Source of the DNA: Escherichia phage 26
Length of the DNA: 42,462 nucleotides
Sequence record: NC_073320.1
Direction: 5' to 3' (one strand)
The translations under genes and the position numbers were made by a program. How positions within the stretch are numbered: position 1 is the first letter of the stretch; each line of letters begins with the position of its first letter. The notes under the pieces were generated by a model. The model was not told the DNA's origin. It saw nothing but the letters and a program-made list of their open reading frames with translations, and did no database searches. This document shows, in pieces, positions 1 through 42,462 of the stretch.

Positions 1-2011
1 CATATGCGAGTAAATCACGGCACAGCGCCTGAACAATGTTTTCGCAGGCTTTGCCGCCGTGGGTGTACAGGGTAGTCCATTGGCGGGTTAACTGGTTTTC
101 ACCCTGATACTTGATTCGCACATTCGTGTTTACTCGTCCGTCTTCGTCTGTTTCCTTTGTCACACTAACGCCGATTCCCGGATACGAGAGGATACGGCCT
201 GACGGCAACTCCACACACAACCACCAACCTGGAACCTTCCTGCCGGATAAATCGGTTTCTACTGTTCTCCAGATTCGGATAGCGCGCTCGCCATTCTTGC
301 GCAGATGCGCCCCCGCCCAAAATTCACGACCCGGATTTCTTACAGCGGCTAAAATACCGTCTTTGAGGTCTCGCCAGAACGCTACTGTTTCCGGGTGTGA
401 CTCACGCCACATACGCTTGATTGCGTCACATGTGCGCCACACTTTCTTGTCCAGAATATACGACGGTCGGTCATCCTTTTCACCTGGATGTGGCGGTCGC
501 TTGGCTTCCTGGATACGCGCCCATTCATACCCTCTCGCAGTGGCCGACCAGATGTGGTCCGGGAATGTACCGTCCATTGTTTTAGCCATCTCAATAAGGT
601 CAAGACCTAGGTTTTTAGCAAACGTAACGAACGCTCCGACACCCCCCTCATAGCCGAGGCCAAGCTCGCATGCTTTGCCTATCTGTCTGATTTCCTTGAA
701 GTTTTTCTTAATATCGTCGGGGTCCATGCCGAACATCTTGCCCGCGGTTACGCAGTAAATATCCAGTCCGGCGCGGAACGTATCGAGCGCGGTTTCTTCG
801 CCCGCCAGCCACGCAAGCCCTCGTCCTTCAACGTTAGAGTAATCAGCAACAACAAACTTATGCCCAGCTTCCGGTATGATGCAACTACGAACCGTCGATG
901 CCGTTAGTTTGGCTACATCGAAACGGCGATGCGCGCGGCCCTTAAGTAACGCAGAAATCCCTTTATCCAGTTCATCATCGTGATAGTACCCGCGCGCCAG
1001 GTTCTGTGGTTGGAAGCCTTTACCCGCCCACCGCAAAGTGCGTTTTGCCCCACCGTACTGTAAACACCCCCGGCGGCGGTCGTCAGAAGAGCGGCCTAAC
1101 AGCAGCGGGTTATATTTCGTTGACGCTGTTGATGCGGCCCCGAGCCGCATTTCGATAATCGTGCGAGCGTCGTCCGGTAAATCATCATCAGCCAACAGGT
1201 CGTTAAGCGTCGATTTCTGTGCGTTGTGGATGCGGTGTGCGGGTGCGAGTTCACGCAGAATCGGAAGGAAGTCTTTACCAGTAAGCGAGCCGCCGTATTT
1301 GCGCTGTGCTTCTTCATGTAACTGTGCCTTGTGTTTCTCCACGGCTTCAATCGCGGATTCCGCCAGTGCAACGTCAACCTTAAACCCACGGTCGTTGATT
1401 AACTGGTCCAGTTCCAGTACACGGTCCTCGAACTCGGAGTTACCCCACCGCGGCAGCTTATGGAAGACTTCACGCATCGCTGTGATGTCGCTAACGGCGT
1501 ACTTGATGAACATCTCCCACTCGTCCGGGTGCGTTTCGGCGGTGTAGCGGCGTATTTTGTAGTTCTTAGGTGTCGGTTTAGAGAAACGCTGAATCAGCGC
1601 CTTACCGCGTTTGTCCTTTGCGTTGTCCGCGGACACGCCCAGCACTTCGCACAACGCATCAAGTGAACCCGGCAGCGCGTGACGAAACGCCCAAATCATC
1701 GTATCAATGGTGTTGCTTACCGGAATATCAAAGCCCCAGCAGTGCTTCATGATGAGCCTATCGAAAAGTCCACCGTTGTGCCACACCATCTTGATGCGGC
1801 TGTTCGGCTTCACCAGGCGGCGTAACGCGCGGTGTAAATCTCCCGGCATGTCGCTGCCGTCGGTGCAATCCCACACCTGCACAGGCTCGTCATCAAAAGC
1901 ATAGGTACAGATTAGCACTTCGGTGGTTGGGTGTTCAGCGTAAGCGTAGGAGCCGACTTTCTTTAAATCGGCTTCGGAGAATGTTTCAAAGTCTAAGAAC
2001 AGGTAACTCAT
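1..2011 (-). CDS. DNA polymerase, family A with 3'-5' exonuclease domain (first 670 codons; gene wraps the window junction and ends at 42272)
   Basis: ATG at 2011-2009; N-terminus MSYLFLDFETFSEADL has a DnaQ-like Exo I (D-x-E) motif; frame stays open to position 2 and joins in-frame with 42462 (..LLAYA/MINVEGGG..). Confidence 0.85.
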   Translation of the reverse strand, partial: MSYLFLDFETFSEADLKKVGSYAYAEHPTTEVLICTYAFDDEPVQVWDCTDGSDMPGDLHRALRRLVKPNSRIKMVWHNGGLFDRLIMKHCWGFDIPVSNTIDTMIWAFRHALPGSLDALCEVLGVSADNAKDKRGKALIQRFSKPTPKNYKIRRYTAETHPDEWEMFIKYAVSDITAMREVFHKLPRWGNSEFEDRVLELDQLINDRGFKVDVALAESAIEAVEKHKAQLHEEAQRKYGGSLTGKDFLPILRELAPAHRIHNAQKSTLNDLLADDDLPDDARTIIEMRLGAASTASTKYNPLLLGRSSDDRRRGCLQYGGAKRTLRWAGKGFQPQNLARGYYHDDELDKGISALLKGRAHRRFDVAKLTASTVRSCIIPEAGHKFVVADYSNVEGRGLAWLAGEETALDTFRAGLDIYCVTAGKMFGMDPDDIKKNFKEIRQIGKACELGLGYEGGVGAFVTFAKNLGLDLIEMAKTMDGTFPDHIWSATARGYEWARIQEAKRPPHPGEKDDRPSYILDKKVWRTCDAIKRMWRESHPETVAFWRDLKDGILAAVRNPGREFWAGAHLRKNGERAIRIWRTVETDLSGRKVPGWWLCVELPSGRILSYPGIGVSVTKETDEDGRVNTNVRIKYQGENQLTRQWTTLYTHGGKACENIVQALCRDLLAY

Positions 2012-2027
2012 TATTTTCGACCCTTAG

Positions 2028-2052
2028 TAAAAAGGCCCAATGAAGGGCCTTA
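2028..2052 (-). terminator. hairpin AAGGCCC-N6-GGGCCTT with U-tract in minus orientation, between SSB-like and polymerase genes (attenuator)
   Basis: 7-bp GC stem, T5 run on minus strand. Confidence 0.4.
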
Positions 2053-5607: not shown

Positions 5608-5671
5608 TTGGCTTTCCTAAAATAATTAATATGGTACTATTCACATATAAACTGACTAAGGAGTAATTACT

Positions 5672-5902: not shown

Positions 5903-6097
5903 TTGCACCTTTATCGGGTATCTTTTGCGAAACTTACCTAACCCGCAGTACACGCTGTAAGCCTCTGTGTAACTGTACACAACATGATACCCACGCCCAT
6001 AAGGAACTACGTTAAGAACTTCTACTATTTCGCCTCTGTGGTTGGTGTATTTATTACCTTTCAGTTCGTCGCTTACTTCTTTAAATTTACCGCTCAT
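5900..6097 (-). CDS. hypothetical protein, 65 aa
   Basis: ATGA overlap with primase-helicase stop. Confidence 0.5.
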   Translation of the reverse strand: MSGKFKEVSDELKGNKYTNHRGEIVEVLNVVPYGRGYHVVYSYTEAYSVYCGLGKFRKRYPIKVQ

Positions 6098-8334
6098 TCC
6101 AAATCCTCCTCTGTCACGGTCAGCATCTCATTCGGTTCGTATATTGTCTTTGGCCTTAATCTGTCACCCATCTTTTCCGGTATCCGGTATGTGCCGGGTA
6201 TAACTTCACCGTTAACATCGCACCCTAACATCAACTCACCGTCTTTCAGCATCTTCTCGAGATGATGGTTGGTGATGGCGTGGTCGCCAGAATTCGCCAC
6301 TATCTGCCGTTGTGTGAAGCCTCGTCCGGTGTCGTCTGACTGTTGCAGGTCTTCCAGCGCTGCAAGTATTGATTCCTTACGCCCTTCATCCTCTCCACGT
6401 TTTACAGCGTTCTTTACGTTTTCTTTACCTTCCTTTGTCAGCCCTTCTTCTCGTTCTTTCTCCTCGTCAGTCTTGAACGGCTCGAAGCCCCACGGCATCA
6501 GTACAAGCGCCTTGTGCGGCTCAGGCAGGTCCAGGTTTACGATTATGCCGTACTCCTCTGTGCTACCCAGGAACTCAACCGCGCGGTATTCTTTCGGCGG
6601 CTGGGCTTCACGGAACTGTACCGACTCAAGCACCATGCCAACCGTTTTCTGTTGGGGCCCGTGCTTAAATTTCGAGTGGTATACGTTTATCTGACGGTCG
6701 GTTGCACGCTCGATTGTCAGTTCCACGTCGACACCTGCATACAGTGCCCCGCTGCCGCGGGCTTTCTTTCCACCCTTCGGTGTATGGTGGACAACGCCTA
6801 CCGCGGCTTTAGTTGCGTCGCGTACTTCTTTCAGAATGGCGATAACTTTACCCATACCGATTGCCGTCGATGAGCTGTTCTCGTCGAACTTATCAATTGT
6901 CAGTGCCAGTGTCTGGTTGAGGGTGTCAAACGCAATCATGCCGATTGGCTCGTCGCCAGCGGTTTCACGCATTATCTTAATCAGGCTTTTCAGTTTTCCG
7001 ACTTCACCCATGTCGATGACGTGTACATAATCTTTACCCTCAACGCCGTATTTAGCCGCGAGTGCATCAATACGTGTACGTGTGGCTGCGCCACCTTCAC
7101 CGTCGATATAGAAGTGGTGGCAACGCTGGGTGTCCGCCCCTGCGAAGCGATAGCCGGCGGCGCTAAGGTACATCATCCCCAGCGTATAAAACGATTTGTA
7201 CGTGCCGGATTCCCCGACGATATCCCAGATACAATCCGACGGCATGTACCCCTCAACGACGAAATCGGCCTTTACCGGTTCCGGTAGCTCGTCCTCCCCT
7301 GAGTCATCCTCGTCTTCCAGGTCGTCGAGGCTGCATGAAACTGACTCACGCGTACCCCAACCGATGGCCTCCGCCACTTCACTGAACGGCAGCCCGGTAG
7401 CATCGCACGCGTATTTCCACACTTCTTTCGGTGACATGCCTTCGGTAGCCGTGATGTCGGTGTCGTGAATCATGGTTACGTTCGGCGCTTCGTACCCTTC
7501 GCGTGGGAAGCACAGCAGGAAGTCGTCTGGGCGCGGCGTCGGGTCGCTGTATTTTCCTGCATGTTCTGGCGTAGCGGGCATTTTCAGTCCGCGTGGTGTC
7601 ATGACGCCGCCGTACTCAAACGCCAGTGCTTCAAACGCGTCAGTAAACGCGGTGCGCAGTTCTTCCGGTATCTGGTAATCCGATGCGCTGCTAACATCAA
7701 CGGCCGGGATGCCTTCCAGTAACTCTTCTTGGTCAATCAGGTCGTTGCGGCGCGACCAGATAACCTGAGAGCCAACTGGTGGCAGGTACATCGGTTGTGA
7801 AAGAGTGAAACCGCTGCGGTCCGCACCCATGCCTTTGAAGAAGTGCTCCAGCAATCCATGACGAACACGGATGATGTCGCCACCTTCGACCGGACGACCC
7901 AATGGCATGACGACACGAAAGCGCGGGGACTCGTCGGTATGTGATGCCGTGGTATATAGACACATCGCCAGGCGGCTGCGCTTAACCAGGCGCACAGCTT
8001 CCTGATACTCTTCCGGTGTTGCGCTGTCGAAGTCCAGATACGCCAGCGACGATTTGCTTACAGATGCATCGCAGCGATAGAAGAACCCTTTACGCGCTTG
8101 CTTAAAGTCACCGGTTTCCGGGTCTTTTACGGTGCTGTGCGTAGCGTCGCACGCGGCAGTGATATAGCCCGGTGCTGTCTTAGGGTTAACCCCATCACGA
8201 ACGGCATCGAGCGGCTGGATCAACTCTTTCAGGTCGTCCAGCGTTGCCGTGTGTGTGGTTCTGACGTTTATATCCTTTTTCTCCGCACGCGCGTTGCGAC
8301 GTGACCACGAGTAGGATAGAATTACATCGGACAT
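6094..8334 (-). CDS. replicative primase-helicase (N-terminal primase-like domain plus RecA/DnaB-like ATPase)
   Basis: 746 aa; Walker A GESGTYKS in C-terminal half; C-terminus ..VTEEDLE. Confidence 0.7.
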   Translation of the reverse strand: MSDVILSYSWSRRNARAEKKDINVRTTHTATLDDLKELIQPLDAVRDGVNPKTAPGYITAACDATHSTVKDPETGDFKQARKGFFYRCDASVSKSSLAYLDFDSATPEEYQEAVRLVKRSRLAMCLYTTASHTDESPRFRVVMPLGRPVEGGDIIRVRHGLLEHFFKGMGADRSGFTLSQPMYLPPVGSQVIWSRRNDLIDQEELLEGIPAVDVSSASDYQIPEELRTAFTDAFEALAFEYGGVMTPRGLKMPATPEHAGKYSDPTPRPDDFLLCFPREGYEAPNVTMIHDTDITATEGMSPKEVWKYACDATGLPFSEVAEAIGWGTRESVSCSLDDLEDEDDSGEDELPEPVKADFVVEGYMPSDCIWDIVGESGTYKSFYTLGMMYLSAAGYRFAGADTQRCHHFYIDGEGGAATRTRIDALAAKYGVEGKDYVHVIDMGEVGKLKSLIKIMRETAGDEPIGMIAFDTLNQTLALTIDKFDENSSSTAIGMGKVIAILKEVRDATKAAVGVVHHTPKGGKKARGSGALYAGVDVELTIERATDRQINVYHSKFKHGPQQKTVGMVLESVQFREAQPPKEYRAVEFLGSTEEYGIIVNLDLPEPHKALVLMPWGFEPFKTDEEKEREEGLTKEGKENVKNAVKRGEDEGRKESILAALEDLQQSDDTGRGFTQRQIVANSGDHAITNHHLEKMLKDGELMLGCDVNGEVIPGTYRIPEKMGDRLRPKTIYEPNEMLTVTEEDLE

Positions 8335-8793: not shown

Positions 8794-9262
8794 TCTAAAA
8801 CCCTCATTATCAGTTAACGAAACAGAGTATACATTGCGAATAATGGGAAATCAAACATAATCGCACCTATTGACATTATGAAAATATTCGTTTAAGGTGC
8901 TTCTATATCTTAGTTACTTTGATTCTTGTTCACCTTGTAAGAATGCTTAACCCGTGCGTTAAGCAAAGGGTTAAGCAGCAGGCTTACTGAACACGAGAAT
9001 TATTGTAACTTTCCTTCCTAAGTATCTCCGGTTGCCCTGGGCAAGCTATATTCTCATCGGCAGCATATCTCTTAAGTATCTGATTTTCTTAATGTGCCGT
9101 AGATTCGCAACCGTAAAAATGTAACGATTATTGGGCAGGCTTAAGGCCTGCCCTTTAGTTACCAAGTAATAAGAATAAAGGCACAACCCCTGCATGAAGA
9201 ATCACAACGGCAACGTAACTATCCTCTTGCACACCCCAACATAATAGGATACTATTCACTTA
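8794..9262. other. 469-bp non-coding region between divergent early arms; candidate origin/regulatory hub
   Basis: no ORF over 16 codons on either strand; GTTAAGC x3 (8945-8976), TAAGTATCT x2 (9019-9027, 9073-9081), hairpin GGGCAGGC-TTAAG-GCCTGCCC (9133-9153), dyad copy at 9243. Confidence 0.3.
9243..9256. promoter_or_regulatory. AATAG-N4-CTATT dyad copy upstream of first rightward gene
   Basis: flanks (ccaaCATAATAGGATACTATTCA) match the reverse complement of the 23-bp element at 19486 and 29732. Confidence 0.4.
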
Positions 9263-10123: not shown

Positions 10124-10321
10124 ATGGGTGAGTGGATTAAGTGTAGTGAGCGGATGCCGGGTGATTTTGAAGATGTGCTGGTTACTGATGGGGATAACGT
10201 TGAGGTGATGTGGCGGCATCGCAGTGGTTTATGGGACTATTGGGCCCCGCGTAACCCGAATATCTCTAGTAACGATGTAACCCATTGGATGCCGTTGCCT
10301 GAGCCACCATCGTTGGTATAA
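10124..10321 (+). CDS. DUF551-like phage protein
   Basis: C-terminal VTHWMPLPEPP motif (family recalled from memory). Confidence 0.5.
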   Translation: MGEWIKCSERMPGDFEDVLVTDGDNVEVMWRHRSGLWDYWAPRNPNISSNDVTHWMPLPEPPSLV

Positions 10322-10339
10322 CAGGTGGTGTAACAGGTC

Positions 10340-10353
10340 AATAGGTTACTATT
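10340..10353. promoter_or_regulatory. AATAG-N4-CTATT dyad copy immediately before a terminator
   Basis: caATAGgttaCTATTtgg; no -35/-10 context, so looks like a binding site rather than a promoter. Confidence 0.35.
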
Positions 10354-10367
10354 TGGCTTTGTGACTT

Positions 10368-10400
10368 ACGCTGCTACACAGCAGCGTATCATTTTTCTCA
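10368..10400 (+). terminator. rho-independent terminator
   Basis: ACGCTGCT-ACAC-AGCAGCGT hairpin then ATCATTTTTCTCATTTTT. Confidence 0.55.
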
Positions 10401-10458
10401 TTTTTGTTCTATTTCACCAAACGCAACAATCGAAGCGACTATTGCAGGAGATGCAACA

Positions 10459-10635
10459 ATGAAAACGTTCACAGAGAAACTTATGTGGCTCGTTGCAAAG
10501 CGAGATTCGGCAACCCGAAGCTACCGTAAATGTGCCAACTGCGGCAGCGAGCAGGTGCAGTTAATCCAGTACCTGGGCGACTCGGTTACGCATAAGTGCA
10601 GAAAGTGCCATCACGTGAATACACAACACCAATAA
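10459..10635 (+). CDS. small zinc-ribbon protein, 58 aa
   Basis: below track cutoff; RBS GCAGGAG; CANCGS..CRKCHH (two CxxC pairs). Confidence 0.45.
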   Translation: MKTFTEKLMWLVAKRDSATRSYRKCANCGSEQVQLIQYLGDSVTHKCRKCHHVNTQHQ

Positions 10636-10642
10636 AATTTAC

Positions 10643-10672
10643 TTGCACACTAAGATAGAATAGGCTACTATT
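10643..10672 (+). promoter_or_regulatory. promoter-like element (TTGCAC-17-TACTAT) with AATAG-N4-CTATT dyad in the spacer
   Basis: TTGCACactaagatagAATAGgctaCTATTcat, 30 nt upstream of the 10703 ORF. Confidence 0.4.
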
Positions 10673-10702
10673 CATTTACACAAACGAGAGGAGAGACAGA
10701 AG

Positions 10703-10816
10703 ATGTACAGCGAATTTGATTTGTGGGATGTGGTTCTTATGTGGGCCTCCGGGGAAGATGTTGTTTGCGACGGCGACACATTAAGTATCGTATGCGAGGA
10801 GCCAGAAGATGAGTAA
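10703..10816 (+). CDS. hypothetical acidic peptide, 37 aa
   Basis: strong RBS GAGAGGAGAG; overlaps start of next gene. Confidence 0.3.
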   Translation: MYSEFDLWDVVLMWASGEDVVCDGDTLSIVCEEPEDE

Positions 10817-11447
10817 CAAAAACGAAGTATTCGAGTACCTGATTGACCAGCTACGGCGGCAGGTAAATAAGAAAGATGTCACGTCTTTCAATGTGTCTGT
10901 GCGGATATCCGACCTTGATGAGGTCAAGCAGGTAATCCACAACCTACAGCAGCATATCGCTGGTAAGGACGACGAAATACGTGCGCTGAAAGACAGTTTA
11001 CGGCAGAAGCTACCAGTCGTAGATGTAATGGGTGAAATTAAACGGTGGTGCATAGACCGTAGTATTGCCGGACGGGGTAACTATACCGACGAGGAAAACG
11101 CCATAATCGATGCTTACATCGGCTTGGAGCACAACCCGTACAAGCAACAGTGCGAAGACCTGGCGCACGAGGTGCAGTCACTTAAGAATAAGTTACGAGA
11201 TATGTCGGATCTGGTGGATGAGCTACTGGGGACAATAACGTTAATGAACGGGGAATACGGTTGCCGTAAGGGAAATGCCCGCGAGTGCCACCATAACTGG
11301 CGATTCGTTAATGGTAAAGCTCCCGCGGTATGTATTAATTGCGGGGTGGCTAAATCCAGCGAGTGCGAACATGAGTGGTGTGTCGAAACCTTTTACGGAA
11401 CCCGAGTATCTCCGACGTACTGCCGTAAATGTGGAGCGACCAAATGA
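10809..11447 (+). CDS. hypothetical protein, coiled-coil N-half and Cys/His-rich C-half
   Basis: 212-aa ORF; C-terminal CINCG..CEHEWC..CRKCG. Confidence 0.6.
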   Translation: MSNKNEVFEYLIDQLRRQVNKKDVTSFNVSVRISDLDEVKQVIHNLQQHIAGKDDEIRALKDSLRQKLPVVDVMGEIKRWCIDRSIAGRGNYTDEENAIIDAYIGLEHNPYKQQCEDLAHEVQSLKNKLRDMSDLVDELLGTITLMNGEYGCRKGNARECHHNWRFVNGKAPAVCINCGVAKSSECEHEWCVETFYGTRVSPTYCRKCGATK

Positions 11448-17435: not shown

Positions 17436-18908
17436 ATGTTAACTATGAACGGTCAGAATCAGGGTGTTAAGACTAAACACCGGGAATGGCTGCACCACTT
17501 TAGTAAATGGCAGAAGGTGCGTCATGCCTTAGAGGGCGACCTTATTCGCTATCTGCGCAACGTCGGGAAGAACGAACCAGACCAGACCTACGCAGCCCAG
17601 CGCCAGGAAGAATACGAGAACGGCGCTATCTGCTACAACTTCACCAAGAGAACGCTGGCTGGGATGGTCGGCAGTGTCATGCGCAAAGACCCTGAACAGA
17701 TTATCCCGCCTGAGATGGAATATCTGCTACGTAATGCCGACGGTTCCGGTGTCGGACTGTGGCAGCACGCGCAGGACACGTTGATGGAGATTGACTCGGT
17801 AGGCCGCGGCGGGTTGCTGGTTGATGCACCAGAGACCGCCGCGGCAACGGCAGCCGAACAGAACGCGGGATTATTAAACCCGGTCATCGCATTCTACACC
17901 ACAGAGAACATCATCAACTGGCGACTGACACGAGTCGGTTCAGTTAACCGCGTGACAATGGTCGTGTTGCGTGAGGCGTGGGAATACTCAGAACCGGGCG
18001 CTGAGTTCGAAACAAAGTTCGGCGAACAATACCGCGTCCTTGACTTGATTGACGGTCGCTACCGCCAGCGCATTTATCGCTTCGATGCCGAAGGTGGCGC
18101 TCAGGACGAAGTAATCGAAATATTTCCGGAACTCGGCGAACAGTTACGCGGCAAAATCCCGTTCACGTTCATCGGGGCGAGCAACAACGATGCGACCATC
18201 GACGACGCACCTTTGCTGCCGTTAGCCGAGCTTAATATCGGACATTTCCGCAACAGCGCAGACAACGAGGAGTCCAGCTTCGTCGTAGGTCAGCCAACTC
18301 TGTTCATCGCCCCCGGTGAGAACATGAGCATGGAACAGTGGGCGGAAGCCAACCCCCACGGCGTGCGCATGGGGTCGCGTTCGGGCCATAACATCGGTTA
18401 CGGCGGCAACGCGTTTCTTGTCCAGGCGGGAGAGAACAACCTTGCCAAACAGAACATGCTGGATAAAGAGAATCAGGCCATCCAGATTGGTGCGCAGCTT
18501 ATCACCCCGACACAGCAAATCACCGCCGAATCGGCCCGTCTGCAACGCGGCGCTGATACGTCCGTTATGGCGACAATCGCACGTAACGTAAGCATGGCGT
18601 ATACCGATGCGTTGCGCTGGGTAGCTGCGATGCTGGGGCTGCGCGAAGACACAGAGATTGAATTCAAGCTGAACATGGAGTTCTTCCTGCAACCGATGAC
18701 CTCTCAGGACCGTGCACAGTGGATGGCAGACATTAACGCCGGTTTGCTGCCAACAACTGCTTACTATGCGGCTTTGCGTAAAGCGGGCGTAACTGACTGG
18801 ACTGATGAGGACATCCAGAACGCTATCGAGGATGCGCCGCTGCCGTTAGGTGCTGTCACTCAGGTAGCGGGAGAAATTCCGCAGTCGGCGCAACAACAAC
18901 AGGAGTAA
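17436..18908 (+). CDS. portal protein
   Basis: 490-aa ORF between TerL and head-morphogenesis gene. Confidence 0.65.
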   Translation: MLTMNGQNQGVKTKHREWLHHFSKWQKVRHALEGDLIRYLRNVGKNEPDQTYAAQRQEEYENGAICYNFTKRTLAGMVGSVMRKDPEQIIPPEMEYLLRNADGSGVGLWQHAQDTLMEIDSVGRGGLLVDAPETAAATAAEQNAGLLNPVIAFYTTENIINWRLTRVGSVNRVTMVVLREAWEYSEPGAEFETKFGEQYRVLDLIDGRYRQRIYRFDAEGGAQDEVIEIFPELGEQLRGKIPFTFIGASNNDATIDDAPLLPLAELNIGHFRNSADNEESSFVVGQPTLFIAPGENMSMEQWAEANPHGVRMGSRSGHNIGYGGNAFLVQAGENNLAKQNMLDKENQAIQIGAQLITPTQQITAESARLQRGADTSVMATIARNVSMAYTDALRWVAAMLGLREDTEIEFKLNMEFFLQPMTSQDRAQWMADINAGLLPTTAYYAALRKAGVTDWTDEDIQNAIEDAPLPLGAVTQVAGEIPQSAQQQQE

Positions 18909-18910
18909 AG

Positions 18911-18940
18911 AAAAAGGCCCCATAGCGGGGCCTTAGTTTT
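18911..18940. terminator. bidirectional terminator AAGGCCCC-ATAGC-GGGGCCTT
   Basis: 8-bp GC stem flanked by A-run upstream and T-run downstream; sits between convergent portal (+) and DnaN-like (-) genes. Confidence 0.6.
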
Positions 18941-19460
18941 ATTTAAATCTTGCGGGCATTAGCACCATATATGCAGTGTTTGAAAATGATATTTTGCATC
19001 CTCTGGTTTGGTCCTGGAAATCGAAACGAGCAATTTCATTTTTGTATGCCTTAGAAATCTTGTGCGCGTCCGCCAAGTAGGGCATGGTGAATCCTATGCT
19101 ATCAACCGCCCCAGGCGTGATGTGCGCCACACGCCGCCAGTCAGGAAATTTTCCGTCTACAACATCCACCGGAAGTGTACATATAAGCGAACGACTATCG
19201 TCATAGAAAGAAACACTGCTGTAGTCGTGGTCTACTTCCGCGTAGTTAAATTTATAAGGCTCTCTCCCTTTGATGTCTATGAGAACCCCATTCTCGACGT
19301 TTGTCTTAACATTGTCGCAGAACAATCTATGGCCGTCCGTAGACACTATCAACCCTTCCGGGTCTATGTAAAAAGCATTCAGATAGTAGCGCACATCATT
19401 TTTAGCTCTGCATATTTTTGCCCCTATATACGCAGGGAAAGTAATTACTGTAGTAATCAT
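18939..19460 (-). CDS. truncated beta sliding clamp (DnaN) homolog, 173 aa
   Basis: motifs DVRYYLN, STDGHRL, VDGKFPDWRRV, IGFTMPYL, AYMVLMPARF match domain II and the C-terminal end of domain III of bacterial DnaN (recalled E. coli DnaN); RBS GAGGAGGAG; opposite strand to flanking late genes. Confidence 0.7.
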   Translation of the reverse strand: MITTVITFPAYIGAKICRAKNDVRYYLNAFYIDPEGLIVSTDGHRLFCDNVKTNVENGVLIDIKGREPYKFNYAEVDHDYSSVSFYDDSRSLICTLPVDVVDGKFPDWRRVAHITPGAVDSIGFTMPYLADAHKISKAYKNEIARFDFQDQTRGCKISFSNTAYMVLMPARFK

Positions 19461-19485
19461 TTTAACTCCTCCTCGTTTCGATAAC

Positions 19486-19508
19486 TGAATAGTACCCTAT
19501 TATATTGG
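19486..19508. promoter_or_regulatory. 23-bp promoter-like element TGAATAGTACCCTATTATATTGG, copy 1
   Basis: identical 23-mer at 29732-29754; contains the dyad; reverse complement gives a perfect TATAAT positioned before the DnaN-like gene. Confidence 0.5.
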
Positions 19509-19561
19509 TGTCTGCAAATATTATTTTTATGCGTTACACTGGCGATACTACAGGAGGGCAC

Positions 19562-20605
19562 ATGAGCTTACTTACATCCCTAATCAGCCACCAGATTTGG
19601 CTGCAACGCACCGCATCCGGTGAAGTGAAAGACCTCGCACCGTTCATTGAGGAAATGCGGGACGAAATCAAACGGCAGGTGCTATTATTCGGCGACGACG
19701 GGCGAAGCACCGCGCGACTGAATAAACTGTTACGCGACCTGGAAGAAGCATTAACCGGGCTTACAGGAGACTGGCAAACAAAGCTGACAGAAGACCTTAA
19801 GGAACTGGCGGCGTATGAGGCAGAGTGGAACGTAAAGACACTGGCCGCCAACGTTAACGCGGAATTTGTTACACCTACCGCCGAACAGGTGTGGGCCGCT
19901 GCCGAGTTTCAGCCCTTATCATTAAGCGACAAGCCTGCCGACTTCACTAAGCTGATGTCGGGTTGGGGTGAAACGGAAGTAGCACGTCTCGTAACAGGCG
20001 TTAAGATGGGCTTTGTTCAGGGCCAAACCACGCGGCATATCGTTAAGAATGTCGTAGGCGCTGGTGGACTGGCTGACATCTCTGAACGCAACGCCGCTAC
20101 GGTAATACGTACTGCGCTGTCCCACGTATCCAACGAAGCCCGTAACGAGACATACCGACAGAACGACGACATCATTGAGAAGTACGAAATCGTCGCCACA
20201 CTCGACAGCCGTACATCAACAATATGCCGTAGCCTGGACGGGCAGGAATACGAAATCGGCAAAGGGCCGAGACCCCCTTTCCACCCTAACTGCAGAACGA
20301 CCACTGCGCCCGTAATCAGTTCAGAGTTCGACTTCCTGGATAAAGGCGCAAAACGAGCAGCTAAAGGTGCGGACGGCGGCACTCAAGTGAGCGCGGATAC
20401 CACATACTACGAGTTCCTGAAACAACAGCCGGCGTGGTTCCAGGACCAGGCGCTCGGCCCTGTTCGCGGTAAGATTTTCCGTAACAGCGGTATATCGCCG
20501 GAAGAGTTTCGCGTAATATCTGTAGATGGTTTCGGGAATCCGCTGACGCTTAAGCAGATGGCGGAACTCGATAAACGTGTTGCTGATTATCTGAAAGAGG
20601 AATAA
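19562..20605 (+). CDS. head morphogenesis / minor head protein (by position)
   Basis: 347 aa after portal; ATG 19562 after RBS AGGAGGG (track ORF starts at upstream TTG 19505). Confidence 0.5.
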   Translation: MSLLTSLISHQIWLQRTASGEVKDLAPFIEEMRDEIKRQVLLFGDDGRSTARLNKLLRDLEEALTGLTGDWQTKLTEDLKELAAYEAEWNVKTLAANVNAEFVTPTAEQVWAAAEFQPLSLSDKPADFTKLMSGWGETEVARLVTGVKMGFVQGQTTRHIVKNVVGAGGLADISERNAATVIRTALSHVSNEARNETYRQNDDIIEKYEIVATLDSRTSTICRSLDGQEYEIGKGPRPPFHPNCRTTTAPVISSEFDFLDKGAKRAAKGADGGTQVSADTTYYEFLKQQPAWFQDQALGPVRGKIFRNSGISPEEFRVISVDGFGNPLTLKQMAELDKRVADYLKEE

Positions 20606-26919: not shown

Positions 26920-28088
26920 ATATGGCTACAACTCCTTTTAAGGGCGCGACTACCGCGCAATTCTATGTGGCGGAAGTCACCCCGGGCGTAACACCGACTA
27001 ACCCAGTATGGTCGCCGTTGCGTAACACAGGTGGCGTCCCCGCCATTACCCGCGACACACTGACCTCCAACGAACTGGACGGCAGCCGTGAAACTACATC
27101 CATCCGCACGGGCAACAAACAGGTTAGCGGGGAGTACGCCATTGAGCTTAGCTCGAAAAGCCAGGATGACTGGTTAGCGGGTGCTTTAGGCTCTACGTGG
27201 CAATCCGGTGTATCCTTGGCTGACCTGTCAATTACCGTAGCACCGGCTGGCAAGACGTTCACCCGTGCTGATGGCAGCTTCATTACTGACGGCGTTGAAG
27301 TAGGCGACCTGATTGCGTTTACCGACTTAACCGGTGACAACGCAAAACCATTTATCGTCACTGCGGTAGAGGCACTGGTATTGACCGGTGCGGGCATCCA
27401 GCACACTCTCACCACAGAGACCGCTACTACTGCGGCTAAGACCGGCGACAAACTGGAAACCGGTAGCCAGTGTAAGACGTTCTCTATTCTCACATGGTAC
27501 AAAGGCCAGTGCGGCGGGACTGACGCGTACACGCTTACCAAAGGCGTGGAAGTTTCAGGTTTTACCGTCGAGCAGGCTGTTAACGCGATGGTAACGGGCA
27601 GCTTCCCGTTCATCGGGCGCAGCCAGGAGATTCTCACTACGCCACCGTCTGGTTCTGATTTCTCCTCTGTTACGTTTGGTGATGAGCCGTTCTCCTCGGT
27701 TGACGTTTCTGTGTTCGACGGTTCTACGCCGTTGCGTTGTGATAGCCTGACCATCACCAACGATAACAGCGCGTCCGCGCAGTTCGAACTCGGCAACACT
27801 AACGTAGCGTTTGTGGAACGTAGCCGCGCGGCTAACACCTTCTCCATCTCCGGTAAGCTGTACGACATGGCGATGATTCAGAAGTTTATCAACGAGCAGC
27901 AGGTAGAGATTAACTCTATTCTGGCGGGGGTAAACGGGGCTATGTCTTTCAGTCTGAAACGCGCAGAACTCACGGCGGTTACACCAGAGATTGGCGGACC
28001 TGAGTCAATCACTCAGTCCATTGAAGGCCAGGCTACCGGCAACCAGTATCAGTCGTCTATCGTTATCCAGCGTATTAGCTACGCATAA
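26916..28088 (+). CDS. major tail (tube) protein
   Basis: 390 aa upstream of chaperone/tape-measure genes; followed by strong terminator. Confidence 0.6.
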   Translation: MNMATTPFKGATTAQFYVAEVTPGVTPTNPVWSPLRNTGGVPAITRDTLTSNELDGSRETTSIRTGNKQVSGEYAIELSSKSQDDWLAGALGSTWQSGVSLADLSITVAPAGKTFTRADGSFITDGVEVGDLIAFTDLTGDNAKPFIVTAVEALVLTGAGIQHTLTTETATTAAKTGDKLETGSQCKTFSILTWYKGQCGGTDAYTLTKGVEVSGFTVEQAVNAMVTGSFPFIGRSQEILTTPPSGSDFSSVTFGDEPFSSVDVSVFDGSTPLRCDSLTITNDNSASAQFELGNTNVAFVERSRAANTFSISGKLYDMAMIQKFINEQQVEINSILAGVNGAMSFSLKRAELTAVTPEIGGPESITQSIEGQATGNQYQSSIVIQRISYA

Positions 28089-28116
28089 AACTAAGGCCCC
28101 TTTCGGGGCCTTTTTC
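28089..28116. terminator. bidirectional terminator AAGGCCCC-TTTC-GGGGCCTT
   Basis: 8-bp GC stem then T-run; between convergent tail tube (+) and moron cassette (-). Confidence 0.65.
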
Positions 28117-28347
28117 TTACTCGTCGATATTGCTTCGATACTCCCGTAACTTCTCCAGACTTTCAATTGCTTCCGCTAAGTCGGTTCCGGTGTCCTTGTG
28201 CCCACGAAGACCCATACACAGCAGCTTCTTCAATGCGTGCTGTAGCGCCGGGTCGCGTATATCGAAGGCGCGTAGCACATCGTAAACGTCTACTGTCATT
28301 GTGCTGCCGTGAGTATTTGTCATTGTGCGGTTGTATTTTGAAGTCAT
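28117..28347 (-). CDS. hypothetical protein, 76 aa (moron cassette gene 3)
   Basis: ATGA overlap with phosphoesterase stop. Confidence 0.5.
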   Translation of the reverse strand: MTSKYNRTMTNTHGSTMTVDVYDVLRAFDIRDPALQHALKKLLCMGLRGHKDTGTDLAEAIESLEKLREYRSNIDE

Positions 28348-29731: not shown

Positions 29732-29754
29732 TGAATAGTACCCTATTATATTGG
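29732..29754. promoter_or_regulatory. 23-bp promoter-like element TGAATAGTACCCTATTATATTGG, copy 2
   Basis: identical to 19486-19508; reverse complement supplies TATAAT about 40 nt upstream of the Imm-like gene start. Confidence 0.5.
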
Positions 29755-30288: not shown

Positions 30289-30653
30289 ACGCGCTGTACA
30301 GGTTCGCCACCTATGAGTTTGTGGATAAGCATAAAATCAGAGAGTTTGATTCTATAGCTGACGGACACGAACAGGCGCTTATCGCGATGGGTGTAATCGA
30401 TAAGAAAAAACGTGCAGCGCGACGGGGTGGGCCAGAATGCCCGCCCCTTTTTATATCCACCTTTGAGACGTATTGCGACATTAAGTTTACGCGACACGTG
30501 CGCGAGGACGCTGTAGTATTGTTTGCAAGAGAATCCGTTACATGGCAAGACCTGAAAGCCTATCTCGGTGTTACGCAAAAGCAGCTTAGTCTGTTCGAGA
30601 TAGACATTATCATGGGCTTAGAAGCAATCTTTGAAGGTAGAAATCATGGCTGA
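30258..30653 (+). CDS. tail assembly chaperone -1 frameshift extension (GT-like)
   Basis: -1 frame open from 30258 to 30653, overlapping the last 10 codons of the chaperone; candidate slip site G GAA AAG / A AAA G at 30279-30285 just before the TAG stop. Confidence 0.45.
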   Translation, partial: RRAQSITGKVDALYRFATYEFVDKHKIREFDSIADGHEQALIAMGVIDKKKRAARRGGPECPPLFISTFETYCDIKFTRHVREDAVVLFARESVTWQDLKAYLGVTQKQLSLFEIDIIMGLEAIFEGRNHG

Positions 30654-36840: not shown

Positions 36841-38817
36841 ATGTCAAGCGGATGTGGTGATGTTGTAAGTCTGGAGTCGATGCAAATCGCACGTAAACAC
36901 CAGATTTTCGAAATCGAGGTTATCACCGGTAAATCCGGCGGTGTTTCCGGTGGTGCGGATATTGATTACGCGACCAACGCAGTTACTGGCCAGACCCAAA
37001 AGACGCTCCCGGCCGTGTTGCGCGACGTTGGGTTTCTTCCTGCTGGCTTTGATTTTTCCACAGGTGGCACCTTATCTATAAATGATAGAAATAAATCAGT
37101 TTTGTGGCCTTCTTCCTCAGGCGGCGATGACCAGTACTACACATGGCAGGGGGTTCTACCTAAAGTTATTCCCGCTTCCAGTTCTCCTAGTGCATCAGGA
37201 GGAGTAGCACCAGGTGCTTGGGTTCAGGTATCGTATTTAGCGTTAAAAACCGATTTAGCCTCTGTTTTAGGGGCTTCCATGATAGGGCTGCCTGCTGGTG
37301 GCTCTCTTGATATGGCCTTAAAATACACGACGCCAGAGCAATTTCTTGCTTCAGCAACTGATATGACTGAAGCCATCCAGATGGCCTTTGATTACGGGGA
37401 CGTAGTAGACTTGTCAGGGTCGAACTATACAATAGCTCGCACGATAAATATTCCGGACGGTCGTGTGCTGCGCATGCAAGGCTCCAACATTACGGCGGCT
37501 ACGGGGGTCACACCCCTATTCTCTTTCTCAGGAAAGAACTTAGGTCTAACAATCATTGGCGGCAGTGGTGTAGTGACAGGGTCAGCTAGTGCCTTTTTGT
37601 ACTGCGAGGGCGCGAGCGACACCCCGGTAAACGCGGACTATGTTAAGCAAGTACGTATTTATGGGGTAAACGTATCTTCTGCTACGTTTGAACGGGCTAT
37701 ACTGTTCGACAAAGCGGTACGTCAAGTGTTTATAGATAGCTGCATGTTCTATACACGCAACGGCATTGAGTCTACTGGTAAATGCGTAGAAGTAATGATT
37801 AATAAATCCATTATTTATGGCGCTACCTCTGATACCGATACATTCGGCGTTAAATTGTCCAGCACGGGAGGTACAAACTTCTACAATGAAGGGTGGCGTC
37901 TAACCGACTGCACAGTTGATAACTTTGCTAATTCAATTGACCTAGCTGATGTGTTTGTATTTACATTCAAGAACGGATATGTGGCTTGTAATGCAACAAC
38001 AGCTTTTGCCGTTACTGTTCGCGGGGTTACCACAACAACGCATTGTCGAGAAATTAACTTTGATGGGGTTATTGGCGGTAAGGTGCGTTTCTTAGATAAT
38101 GCGTCCGGCTCATTGACCATGCATACTCTTATTACAGGAGAGATTACGAACTGTAAACCTGGAACGTGTATAGCTATCGGGGCAAACTTGGCAGGTATTG
38201 ATATCCGCAATATCAAAATCACTTCAAGTCCATCTTGCATACTGGCTTCTGTAGCTAACAACAGTGGTAATATCCATTTTGCAGGCGTTTCTACCGACAG
38301 CACCCTAACCGCGGGCATTATCTTCAACGGAACAAACGGCGGAAACTGTAGCATCTCTGATTTTATATACGCTGGCTCTGGCGAGGCTCTTTCTCTCGCG
38401 CGGGCGGTTCTGCTGTCCAATGTGCCGGTTGTTGGGGCGACGACACCAATTTGGTCTGTGCGTCACGGCTATCAATCTACAACAACGACGGTTACTACAG
38501 GTAATTATATTTCTAGCACTCAATTCACTGCTGCGAAAGGCTCTAAACTACTGTTTAATATTAACATGTCGTACACTGGGGCGGCCGGGTCTAACGGGCA
38601 GTCAATCGGGATAAATGTACCGGCGAATGTATCGCTGCCGAATGGTGCGAAAAGTATGACATTAATACTTCCTGCGGCATCCGGAACAGTTGGATTGACA
38701 CTAGTATGTACTGTTACTGATGATTTTATAAATAATTTATTCAGCGTGACAAATAACACAGGCAACACCTTATCAATACTACCCGGTGCGCACGTTTCAG
38801 TATCGCTATGTAATTAA
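36841..38817 (+). CDS. tailspike / receptor-binding depolymerase with beta-helix
   Basis: 658 aa; N-terminal anchor MSSGCGDVVSLESMQ..; Gly/Ser/Thr/Asn-rich repetitive region typical of right-handed beta-helix. Confidence 0.65.
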   Translation: MSSGCGDVVSLESMQIARKHQIFEIEVITGKSGGVSGGADIDYATNAVTGQTQKTLPAVLRDVGFLPAGFDFSTGGTLSINDRNKSVLWPSSSGGDDQYYTWQGVLPKVIPASSSPSASGGVAPGAWVQVSYLALKTDLASVLGASMIGLPAGGSLDMALKYTTPEQFLASATDMTEAIQMAFDYGDVVDLSGSNYTIARTINIPDGRVLRMQGSNITAATGVTPLFSFSGKNLGLTIIGGSGVVTGSASAFLYCEGASDTPVNADYVKQVRIYGVNVSSATFERAILFDKAVRQVFIDSCMFYTRNGIESTGKCVEVMINKSIIYGATSDTDTFGVKLSSTGGTNFYNEGWRLTDCTVDNFANSIDLADVFVFTFKNGYVACNATTAFAVTVRGVTTTTHCREINFDGVIGGKVRFLDNASGSLTMHTLITGEITNCKPGTCIAIGANLAGIDIRNIKITSSPSCILASVANNSGNIHFAGVSTDSTLTAGIIFNGTNGGNCSISDFIYAGSGEALSLARAVLLSNVPVVGATTPIWSVRHGYQSTTTTVTTGNYISSTQFTAAKGSKLLFNINMSYTGAAGSNGQSIGINVPANVSLPNGAKSMTLILPAASGTVGLTLVCTVTDDFINNLFSVTNNTGNTLSILPGAHVSVSLCN

Positions 38818-38847
38818 AACTAAGGCCCCAAACGGGGCCTTTTCTCT
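38818..38847. terminator. terminator AAGGCCCC-AAAC-GGGGCCTT at end of late arm (likely bidirectional)
   Basis: 8-bp GC stem then TTCTCT; between convergent tailspike (+) and HNH remnant (-). Confidence 0.65.
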
Positions 38848-40886: not shown

Positions 40887-41562
40887 GATTAGCCTCGTAA
40901 ACTGCTTTTGCGAAACCCCGCGGAGTAAGGCTGCGTATTGTTTTTGTCCCCACCGATTTACCGCCTAATTTATTGTGTTGGTCAGAGTAACCGCCAACCA
41001 CGGCGACACATGATTTAACAGGCATCACAAAACCGTTACCCGCCCAAATACATGTCTTCTTAGGGTACGCGTCCCGCGGTTTTATGTATTCGGGGAACAT
41101 TGGGTGCGTGTCGTCTTCGGGTAAATAGCCGCCGTATTCGTATGGATTGAACGCGTAGTCAGGCTTACGCCATAAAGACGAAAGAACGCTAACAGGGTTC
41201 TCAATCATATAAGGTACGTTGTACTTTTTAGCCAGACGCGCCGCCACTTTGCATGTAATTACGGCCTCTACCTGAAACGTGGGGTTCTTCTTCCGCTTCG
41301 TTTCAAAATGCGCCGCGCCGCTAACGGCTAAATCTGTGCACGGAGGGAACGCAAAAATAATATCCGGCGCAACCCCGAAGTCGAATTTATTGTCAATCCA
41401 AGCGTTTATATAGTGGATGTTTTCGTGTTCAACTTTTGCACCCAATCGTGCGTAGTCTCCGTGGTCGGCGCCATCGTAGTTGAAACAATAGCAAGTATGG
41501 CCTGCTTCCGCCCACGGTTGGGCCATAAGGCCCGAACCGTCAAACAATGACCAGACAATCAT
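40879..41562 (-). CDS. C5-cytosine DNA methyltransferase-like protein (short, no obvious target-recognition domain)
   Basis: motif I-like LFDGSG, motif IV-like FPPCT, motif VI-like ENP; 227 aa. Confidence 0.5.
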   Translation of the reverse strand: MIVWSLFDGSGLMAQPWAEAGHTCYCFNYDGADHGDYARLGAKVEHENIHYINAWIDNKFDFGVAPDIIFAFPPCTDLAVSGAAHFETKRKKNPTFQVEAVITCKVAARLAKKYNVPYMIENPVSVLSSLWRKPDYAFNPYEYGGYLPEDDTHPMFPEYIKPRDAYPKKTCIWAGNGFVMPVKSCVAVVGGYSDQHNKLGGKSVGTKTIRSLTPRGFAKAVYEANHV

Positions 41563-41750
41563 TTCAGCACCAGAACTAACTCTTTACGCCCGAACGCCGT
41601 AACGTTACCGGTTACATCTTCGATAACCAGTTTACCGTTCGACTCGACGTACACCGTATCAACGGCAACAGGACTACGGGTCTTAACGTTGAAAATCATG
41701 TCGCCTGGTACGATGTCACGTGCGGGTTTGCGGTCATATTCGTGTTTCAT
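41559..41750 (-). CDS. hypothetical protein, 63 aa
   Basis: ATGA overlap with methyltransferase-like gene. Confidence 0.5.
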   Translation of the reverse strand: MKHEYDRKPARDIVPGDMIFNVKTRSPVAVDTVYVESNGKLVIEDVTGNVTAFGRKELVLVLK

Positions 41751-41780
41751 TTCTCAATTCCTTATATTGTTGGTGTAAGG

Positions 41781-42068
41781 CTAACTATAATAGTTCGCTA
41801 TTAGGTCGTCAACCTGTTTAAACGAACCGACGACAAAAACATTCGCACCACGTTTCCGGAATCTCTCATGTTCCCGTAGCTGGTGCGGGTCTGGCTTCGT
41901 GTTTTCGTCTTTCTTTATCTCAACGAACCAGATGATGCCGCCGGGGAGAATTACCAGGAGGTCCATGGCGGCTCGCCGACCTTCAAATGCCATCTTGCGA
42001 ACGAGGCCACCAATGGCCTCGAATCGGTATTTTGCGTATTTCTGGATTCGCCCTTCAGGCGTACTCAT
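41781..42068 (-). CDS. VRR-NUC domain nuclease
   Basis: DLLVILPGGIIWFVEIKKDENTKPDPHQLREHERF; start ATG 42068 (track ORF begins at 42077). Confidence 0.65.
   Translation of the reverse strand: MSTPEGRIQKYAKYRFEAIGGLVRKMAFEGRRAAMDLLVILPGGIIWFVEIKKDENTKPDPHQLREHERFRKRGANVFVVGSFKQVDDLIANYYS
41784..41812 (-). promoter_or_regulatory. sigma70-type promoter P1 (TTGACG-17-TATAGT) with dyad, embedded in the 3' coding end of the VRR-NUC gene
   Basis: minus-strand TTGACGacctAATAGcgaaCTATTATAGT-TAG; the TAG is the VRR-NUC stop. Confidence 0.45.
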
Positions 42069-42154
42069 AATACGCACCCCTCACGTTTCGTATGCTCAAT
42101 CCCGCAGCGTGGACAGATTCGACAGTCTTCTTCGTATAGCCAGTAAATTTTCAT
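42065..42154 (-). CDS. possible 29-aa Cys-rich peptide
   Basis: MKIYWLYEEDCRICPRCG..; ATGA overlaps at both ends; very short. Confidence 0.2.
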   Translation of the reverse strand: MKIYWLYEEDCRICPRCGIEHTKREGCVL

Positions 42155-42282
42155 TCCAGCACCCACAGATAAATTGCGATGAACATACCTAATACGGCGA
42201 CAATCATGCCGTATTGGCCTTCGTGACAGTAGACCCCAGCGGCGAATCCCGCCAGTACCGCGATAATCAGTTTACTTAGCAT
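42151..42282 (-). CDS. possible 43-aa membrane peptide
   Basis: MLSKLIIAVLAGFAAGVYC..MIVAVLGMFIAIYLWVLE, two hydrophobic segments; start overlaps polymerase end. Confidence 0.3.
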   Translation of the reverse strand: MLSKLIIAVLAGFAAGVYCHEGQYGMIVAVLGMFIAIYLWVLE

Positions 42283-42462
42283 AACGCTTCATCTCCGCAC
42301 CTTCCGCTACAAGAGGGAAACCCTCAGCCCATTCCGGCAGCGAGCACATTAATTTTTCCAGTTCGCCCACCGTGTACTCTGTGGTATCCGGAGTTTCACA
42401 TACCAATTCATCGTGTACCGAAAGCACGATGGGATACCCGCCACCCTCAACATTAATCATCG
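42272..42462 (-). CDS. DNA polymerase, family A, C-terminal 63 codons (continuation of 1..2011 across the window junction)
   Basis: contains motif C LSVHDELV; stop TAA 42274-42272; frame contiguous with position 1. Confidence 0.85.
   Translation of the reverse strand, partial: MINVEGGGYPIVLSVHDELVCETPDTTEYTVGELEKLMCSLPEWAEGFPLVAEGAEMKRYAK

Follow-up and report, generated by a model that had tools for sequence, protein, structure and literature searches.

A mobile phage gene for a shortened DnaN homolog that appears to keep the client-docking cleft of the sliding clamp without its ring interface

What use could a phage have for part of a sliding clamp? The question is raised by a 173-amino-acid (aa) minus-strand open reading frame (ORF) of Escherichia phage 26 (NC_073320.1) that resembles a portion of the bacterial beta clamp, DnaN, and that is flanked by the portal gene (17436..18908, plus strand) and the head-morphogenesis gene (19505..20605, plus strand). 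The window that we analyzed, a stretch of 42,462 nucleotides (nt), is the circularly permuted complete genome of a Kagunavirus-like siphophage (Guernseyvirinae) with 88 to 90% identity to several Escherichia phages. A preliminary description of this DNA had reported the ORF, its position and five clamp motifs in order (DVRYYLN, STDGHRL, VDGKFPDWRRV, IGFTMPYL, and AYMVLMPARF), and we found all of these as described. The anatomy of the product, here called the mini-clamp, supports one firm statement: it is a clamp derivative selected for its client-docking cleft and not for a ring. The gene and its nearest signals are as follows.

18939..19460, minus strand: short homolog of the beta clamp, 173 aa, comprising domain II and the C-terminal half of domain III of DnaN; ATG start
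19466..19474, minus strand: ribosome-binding site (RBS) GAGGAGGAG, ending 5 nt 5' of the mini-clamp ATG, read directly from the sequence
18914..18934: bidirectional terminator-like G+C-rich hairpin with T-runs on both strands, 3' of the mini-clamp stop codon

The mini-clamp has detectable sequence and fold homology to DnaN, although it aligns only to DnaN residues 144 to 252 and 311 to 365. Domain I and residues ~253 to 310 are absent, leaving domain II and, from domain III, the adjoining helix and three strands, in a protein of 173 aa compared to 366 aa for DnaN. Its structure was predicted with very high model confidence, and the parts that it keeps hold the native geometry when compared with the Escherichia coli clamp (2POL/1MMI). 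The proposed homology and partial architecture are therefore backed by profile, structural, and comparative evidence. The protein is nonetheless not a three-domain DnaN: the Pfam match was to PF02767, the central domain, alone (17.6 bits versus a cut-off of 27), and the TIGR00663 score fell below the family cut-off (16.9 versus 137.65 bits). Domain II itself is also altered in the mini-clamp's subgroup, where a loop stands in for its second inner helix.

What has been kept is the surface on which other proteins dock. Clamp-binding peptides contact a pocket formed by V247, L177, V360, P242, and M362, the backbone of G174, M362, and P363, and the side chains of R152, H175, and R246 (PMC3716654). 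All 10 of these documented contact residues are identical in the mini-clamp (V111, L46, V166, P106, M168, G43, P169, R24, H44, and R110). Across a 61-sequence family alignment, 22 positions were conserved at 90% or more, and all except Met1 fell in four cleft-forming motifs; 7 of the 10 contact residues belong to this set (p = 2e-5). As judged from its sequence, the mini-clamp thus keeps the complete hydrophobic cleft for clamp-binding motifs (QL[SD]LF-type peptides). The dN/dS of the gene relative to its orthologs, 0.125 to 0.155, indicates purifying selection.

What has been lost is the ring. The dimer interface residues I272/L273 lie in a segment of domain III (PMC3022782), and both this segment and domain I are missing from the mini-clamp. 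Because both faces of the head-to-tail interface are gone, a canonical DNA-encircling ring is not possible. AlphaFold2 (AF2) predicted a homodimer, in which the truncated half-domain seeks a partner.

The same truncation recurs widely. A tblastn comparison with 50,697 phage records gave short-clamp homologs in 218, and the hosts of these phages include Salmonella, Escherichia, Klebsiella, Proteus, Vibrio, and Shewanella. A profile search of 1.84 billion representatives returned 259 clusters at E <= 1e-30; among the best 150 of these, 149 are 141 to 255 aa long and almost every one aligns with the full length of the profile. Boundaries that recur across clusters imply that the truncated architecture is old and stable. 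The mini-clamp also matches phrog_3007 (E 4.7e-37, residues 13 to 172), which places it among the short phage homologs of polIII-beta of about 170 to 230 aa. The annotations of the related genomes that we examined include no clamp-loader gene.

The short clamp gene lay among the virion-structure genes, on the strand opposite to theirs, in every phage lineage inspected: Kagunavirus (two sites), T1-like Bas81, Dhillonvirus, Proteus Gorganvirus, and Shewanella phage 1/41 (the last four at L002 5968-6504, L003 5926-6480, L004 5968-6465, and L005 5974-6522; Shewanella phage 1/41 carries P2 gpD-like tail genes). We could not account for this repeated location antisense to structural genes, and the inspected lineages had no shared neighbor to suggest a partner. 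In Kagunavirus and Shewanella phage 1/41 the gene has no companion; its neighbor is a ParB-like gene in Bas81 and the gene for a 254-aa hypothetical protein in Dhillonvirus. In an integrase-flanked island of Pseudomonas aeruginosa (L006 6974-8699), a 232-aa short clamp gene overlaps the preceding gene, which encodes the nucleoid-associated protein NA37, by 8 nt, suggesting translational coupling, while a prophage copy (L007) is surrounded by DUF4942, Metallophos, and RdgC genes. Candidate plasmid members were rejected, as the 120 tblastn hits, in 120 records of large enterobacterial plasmids (170 to 220 kb, mostly from Citrobacter and Klebsiella), turned up DnaN paralogs of full length (~425 aa). 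The paralog adjoins Dam methylase and RdgC genes in both plasmids that we inspected (L016 8482-9759 and L017 8536-9804); one of the two also has DinG there, and the other has genes for SSB and DUF4942. This set partly resembles the prophage surroundings of the short clamp (DUF4942 and RdgC).

Within Kagunavirus, the gene belongs to a block that differs in presence and position among close relatives.

18912..19522, minus strand: mobile cassette of 611 bp (terminator, ORF, RBS, and promoter region), with the same block in phage Ivi

The Ivi block (10243-10853 of the compared locus L001) is 88.6% identical and occupies a different site, between the Ig-like decoration gene and the spanins (site B), with flanks that align elsewhere. 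SHAK7693 carries the cassette at the same position as phage 26 (site A), and in K1ind2 and Bas74 this site is empty, the head-morphogenesis gene directly following the portal gene. The dS between the Ivi copy at site B and the SHAK7693 copy at site A is only 0.027, compared to ~0.36 to 0.41 between the phage 26 copy and either of them; such near-identical copies at different sites imply that the cassette has moved recently. With promoter-type and terminator-like signals of its own, two sites, and variable presence among close relatives, the locus has the sequence features of a moron or accessory cassette, the character ascribed to it in the preliminary description. A search for E. coli prophage copies found no match to the cassette in 5,426 genomes. 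The loci compared for the two Kagunavirus sites, both in late operons, were L001 10243-10853, L010 2763-3284, and L012 4880-5151. At site B, Bas74 has a 67-aa ORF and SHAK7693 has a similar small ORF, and copies of the promoter core and of terminator-hairpin-like sequence lie close by. Recombination between repeated regulatory elements may drive the swapping of modules. The SHAK7693 record (vB_EcoM_SHAK7693, OR594180.1) is filed as Autographiviridae/Kayfunavirus and named as a myovirus; the genome, however, runs collinear with those of Kagunavirus siphophages and shares 89% identity with phage 26 over the 1.3-kb region compared.

The expression signals attributed to the gene were also borne out: the RBS could be read directly, a conserved promoter-type core was found upstream, and the hairpin outperformed its shuffled controls. 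This hairpin, common to the mini-clamp gene and the converging portal gene, scored as terminator-like on both strands and folded with -15.4 kcal/mol (minus strand) and -19.0 kcal/mol (plus strand), values reached by 0 of 200 shuffles. Its position between the portal gene and the head-morphogenesis gene places it inside the late operon, where transcription of the late genes must either continue past the hairpin or start anew. Pieces of the hairpin sequence also occur at other convergent gene junctions (28085-28118 and 38815-38829). The upstream element and the copies of its core are as follows.

19486..19517, minus strand: promoter-type element, TTGCAG (19512-19517), 17-nt spacer, TACTAT (19489-19494), defined by alignment of copies
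19486-19501, minus strand: conserved core AATAGGGTACTATTCA of this element
5628-5643 plus, 9243-9258 plus, 10659-10674 plus, 19486-19501 minus, and 29732-29747 minus: copies of the core, AATAnGnTACTATTCA

The alignment of copies gives the general form cTTGCaC-N17-TACTAT. The five exact copies of AATAnGnTACTATTCA in the genome compare with 0.00 expected by chance, and related Kagunavirus genomes hold 4 to 6 copies of the same core. By position, the other copies head a transcriptional-regulator gene, small early-type ORF blocks, and a superinfection-immunity/exonuclease island; none heads a structural operon. Position and consensus suggest that the element acts as a promoter, and we infer that transcription of the mini-clamp belongs to this non-late class. 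A generic sigma-70 scan missed the element because its -35 matches at only three of six positions. The spacer is strongly conserved and might be an operator. A promoter-like site also lies on the plus strand at 19478-19506.

Given an intact cleft, no ring interface and apparently independent expression, the reading we favor, at somewhat short of an even chance, is that a cleft-only "mini-clamp" competes with the host clamp for its partners. Two replication genes of the phage bear on this reading.

About 41560-42462 joined to 1-2050, minus strand: family-A DNA polymerase (PolA), 733 aa, reading continuously across the ends of the window
6094..8334: primase-helicase, 746-aa ORF

The polymerase spans the junction, and linear ORF lists therefore miss it. 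Under the competition reading, the gene would be transcribed independently, against the late operon, from a promoter class shared with the early, regulator, and superinfection-immunity units, and its transcript would end at its own terminator. The mini-clamp would then accumulate as a soluble protein, probably a homodimer, and, in competition with the host beta2 ring, bind proteins that use a clamp-binding motif for docking; possible clients would be Pol III alpha, epsilon, and delta, Hda, Pol II, IV, and V, MutS/MutL, and the like. Clamp-dependent transactions on host DNA would be diverted or silenced while the phage relied for replication on the family-A polymerase and primase-helicase that it encodes. 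The parts of this scheme that we infer are ligand binding, the oligomeric state, the timing of expression, and the host or phage client that is relevant. By analogy with a dominant-negative monomeric clamp, a soluble competitor would be the most economical reading. The preliminary description had offered three mechanisms, and the sequestering of host clamp partners is the only one that would fit the anatomy. Recruitment of the host clamp to the phage PolA was not upheld, as PolA has no clamp-binding motif and we identified no surface on the mini-clamp for binding beta itself; the third, poisoning of host rings, is weighed below.

Several considerations weigh against competition for host clients. 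The main caveat is that family members also occur in Bas81 and Shewanella phage 1/41, which have no annotated DNA polymerase, whereas Dhillonvirus and Kagunavirus encode a family-A enzyme. Phages of the former kind presumably need host Pol III and beta, so that indiscriminate titration of clients would be self-harming; the family as a whole may aim at fewer clients (Hda, repair or translesion enzymes, or a clamp-directed toxin), or it may recruit proteins and not sequester them. In DnaN generally, moreover, no parts are more conserved than the cleft motifs, and their retention alone is no proof of ligand binding. The homodimer prediction rests on a linker trick and an unpaired alignment, and a non-canonical ring, such as a tetramer, may form. 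Finally, the near-neutral pI of the mini-clamp (6.9, compared to a short-clamp family median of 7.7 [range, 5.45 to 9.05] and 5.25 for E. coli DnaN) is compatible with direct DNA binding.

A more elaborate proposal, which we regard as doubtful, joins pairing to competition: pairs of mini-clamps would form a new oligomeric clamp form that diverse virulent phages use as an early "client sponge." The orphan half-domains of two mini-clamps would rebuild one complete, two-fold-symmetric clamp domain, giving a three-domain arc, or a new ring with a second dimer, that bears two clefts. This would be an oligomeric form of the sliding-clamp fold not recognized before. Its effect would be a selective reprogramming of the clamp interactome, in which, for example, Hda/RIDA, mismatch repair, or a clamp-directed defense is disabled and replication is spared, whether or not the phage depends on Pol III.

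We think it unlikely that the mini-clamp is instead an adaptor or non-ring processivity accessory, whose cleft would bind a motif on a host enzyme (Pol III, Pol I, or ligase) or on a phage protein and tether the bound enzyme to phage DNA or to the replisome, as with herpesvirus UL42/UL44. An adaptor for replication sits poorly with a gene that is dispensable in close relatives having the same replication genes and that lies in no replication module in any lineage examined. The pI of the protein is also not strongly basic, and its subgroup lacks the second inner helix of domain II. Searches for a phage-encoded ligand also spoke against this role. PolA was rejected as a partner because it lacks any Q..L.F-type motif, and looser clamp-binding motifs numbered 5 in 12,978 aa, no more frequent than a rough hand-made composition estimate. 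One of the five, QVLLF at residue 58 of the head-morphogenesis protein (19505-20605, plus strand), is likely a chance match. The only strict match in the genome, QLSLF, lies at aa 88 of the gpT-like frameshift extension of the tail assembly chaperone (30321..30653, plus strand), and it was rejected as a dedicated ligand because its distribution does not follow that of the clamp gene: the site reads QNIGMF in clamp-positive Ivi and SHAK7693 but QLSLF in clamp-negative K1ind2 and Bas74. The chaperone motif is probably part of a structural helix.

Another explanation, which strikes us as decidedly unlikely even though the cassette's distribution suits it, is a counter-defense decoy. Here the free cleft would soak up a host, prophage, or toxin-antitoxin effector that normally attacks the clamp cleft as a means of aborting infection, or would block a defense protein that docks on the clamp. 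Toxins that target the cleft (SocB) and extra DnaN copies that serve as resistance decoys (GriR) are known. The distribution is that of an accessory gene: near-identical phages may have or lack the cassette, a self-contained unit that also swaps sites; its promoter class is shared with the "superinfection immunity" unit, and the family occurs in virulent phages whatever their replication strategy. We know of no E. coli defense system that depends on the clamp cleft. The mini-clamp was also rejected as a defense-system component, as it matched no PADLOC model, a library of defense and not anti-defense proteins.

We consider it very improbable that the mini-clamp is a poison subunit that inactivates host beta by entering mixed rings. 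Homology to beta would allow it, and the AF2 prediction that the truncated half-domain seeks a partner leans the same way, but both partners of the native head-to-tail interface have been deleted, and this earlier suggestion is disfavored for that reason. A decaying, functionless remnant of a captured dnaN, which truncation relative to DnaN and scores below the Pfam and TIGRFAM cut-offs might suggest, is effectively refuted by the dN/dS (0.13 to 0.16 to two decimals), by the recurrence of the same boundaries in 259 clusters, by the very confident structure model, and by the intact expression signals.

The novelty implied in the preliminary description was overstated, as GenBank records of related phages already label the gene "DNA polymerase III sliding clamp," "beta subunit," or "beta clamp domain-containing protein," and a genome paper assigns it a processivity role, with the truncation unmentioned (PMC9825357). 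Clamp homology is therefore already known. What appears to be new is the precise architecture, which includes half of domain III and not all of it, and the survival of the full cleft where the ring interface has been lost. The same holds for the predicted dimer, for the packaging of the ORF with promoter and terminator in a mobile cassette and the promoter class of that cassette, for the repeated location antisense to structural genes, and for how large the family is. We found no functional or structural study of the short clamp in the literature. The PHROG label for phrog_3007, "RusA-like Holliday junction resolvase," is inherited by pharokka-annotated genomes and is given by many annotation pipelines; neither a RusA fold nor a RusA Pfam domain was found, the fold being that of a sliding clamp, and the label is an error that propagates. 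Both it and the processivity label are misleading, and both have spread. The clamp cleft is a hub for bacterial replication, repair, translesion synthesis, and initiation control, as well as an antibiotic target. A natural, widespread, cleft-only protein of 173 residues would serve as a dominant-negative probe of the clamp interactome and as a compact scaffold for cleft-ligand screening, and it could represent a form of viral takeover or counter-defense that imitates a hub instead of binding it.

Comparison with known systems places the mini-clamp close to several clamp proteins and apart from each. With E. coli DnaN (2POL/1MMI) it shares clear sequence and fold homology and identical cleft residues, but it lacks domain I, residues ~253 to 310, and the dimer interface and falls below the family cut-offs. 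E. coli beta*, a UV-inducible short beta made from an internal dnaN start, is said to have been described by Skaliter et al. in 1996 and reportedly acts as a clamp, although our literature search found no paper. It is likewise a natural, N-terminally shortened clamp that begins near the start of domain II; it keeps the whole of domain III, however, of which the mini-clamp lacks half. The herpesvirus proteins UL42, UL44, and BMRF1 are non-ring processivity factors, UL42 and UL44 being clamp-fold proteins; the type has a basic DNA-binding face, with a high pI, and a cognate polymerase with a docking peptide, whereas here the pI is 6.9 and PolA has no Q..L.F-type motif. Gp168 in PDB entry 7evp, a phage Twort protein, and Mu C exemplify phage strategies centered on the clamp and its binding motifs, but those proteins bind the host clamp and the mini-clamp imitates it. 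Overexpression of MuC perturbs Hda/clamp function (PMC12867686). Short phage homologs of polIII-beta were noted by Kazlauskas and Venclovas in 2011 and said to cover "the second and third domains" (PMC3201878). These are of the same class as the mini-clamp and phrog_3007 (phage encoded, about 170 to 230 aa, without domain I), but the mini-clamp holds only half of domain III, and no function, cleft analysis, oligomer prediction, or genomic behavior was reported there. The best experimental analogue of the proposed mechanism is engineered monomeric beta (I272A/L273A), a non-ring clamp with an intact cleft that was reported to be unclonable, suggesting dominant negativity (PMC3022782). That construct is a full-length, three-domain laboratory mutant, and by this analogy the mini-clamp would be, in effect, its natural, truncated version.
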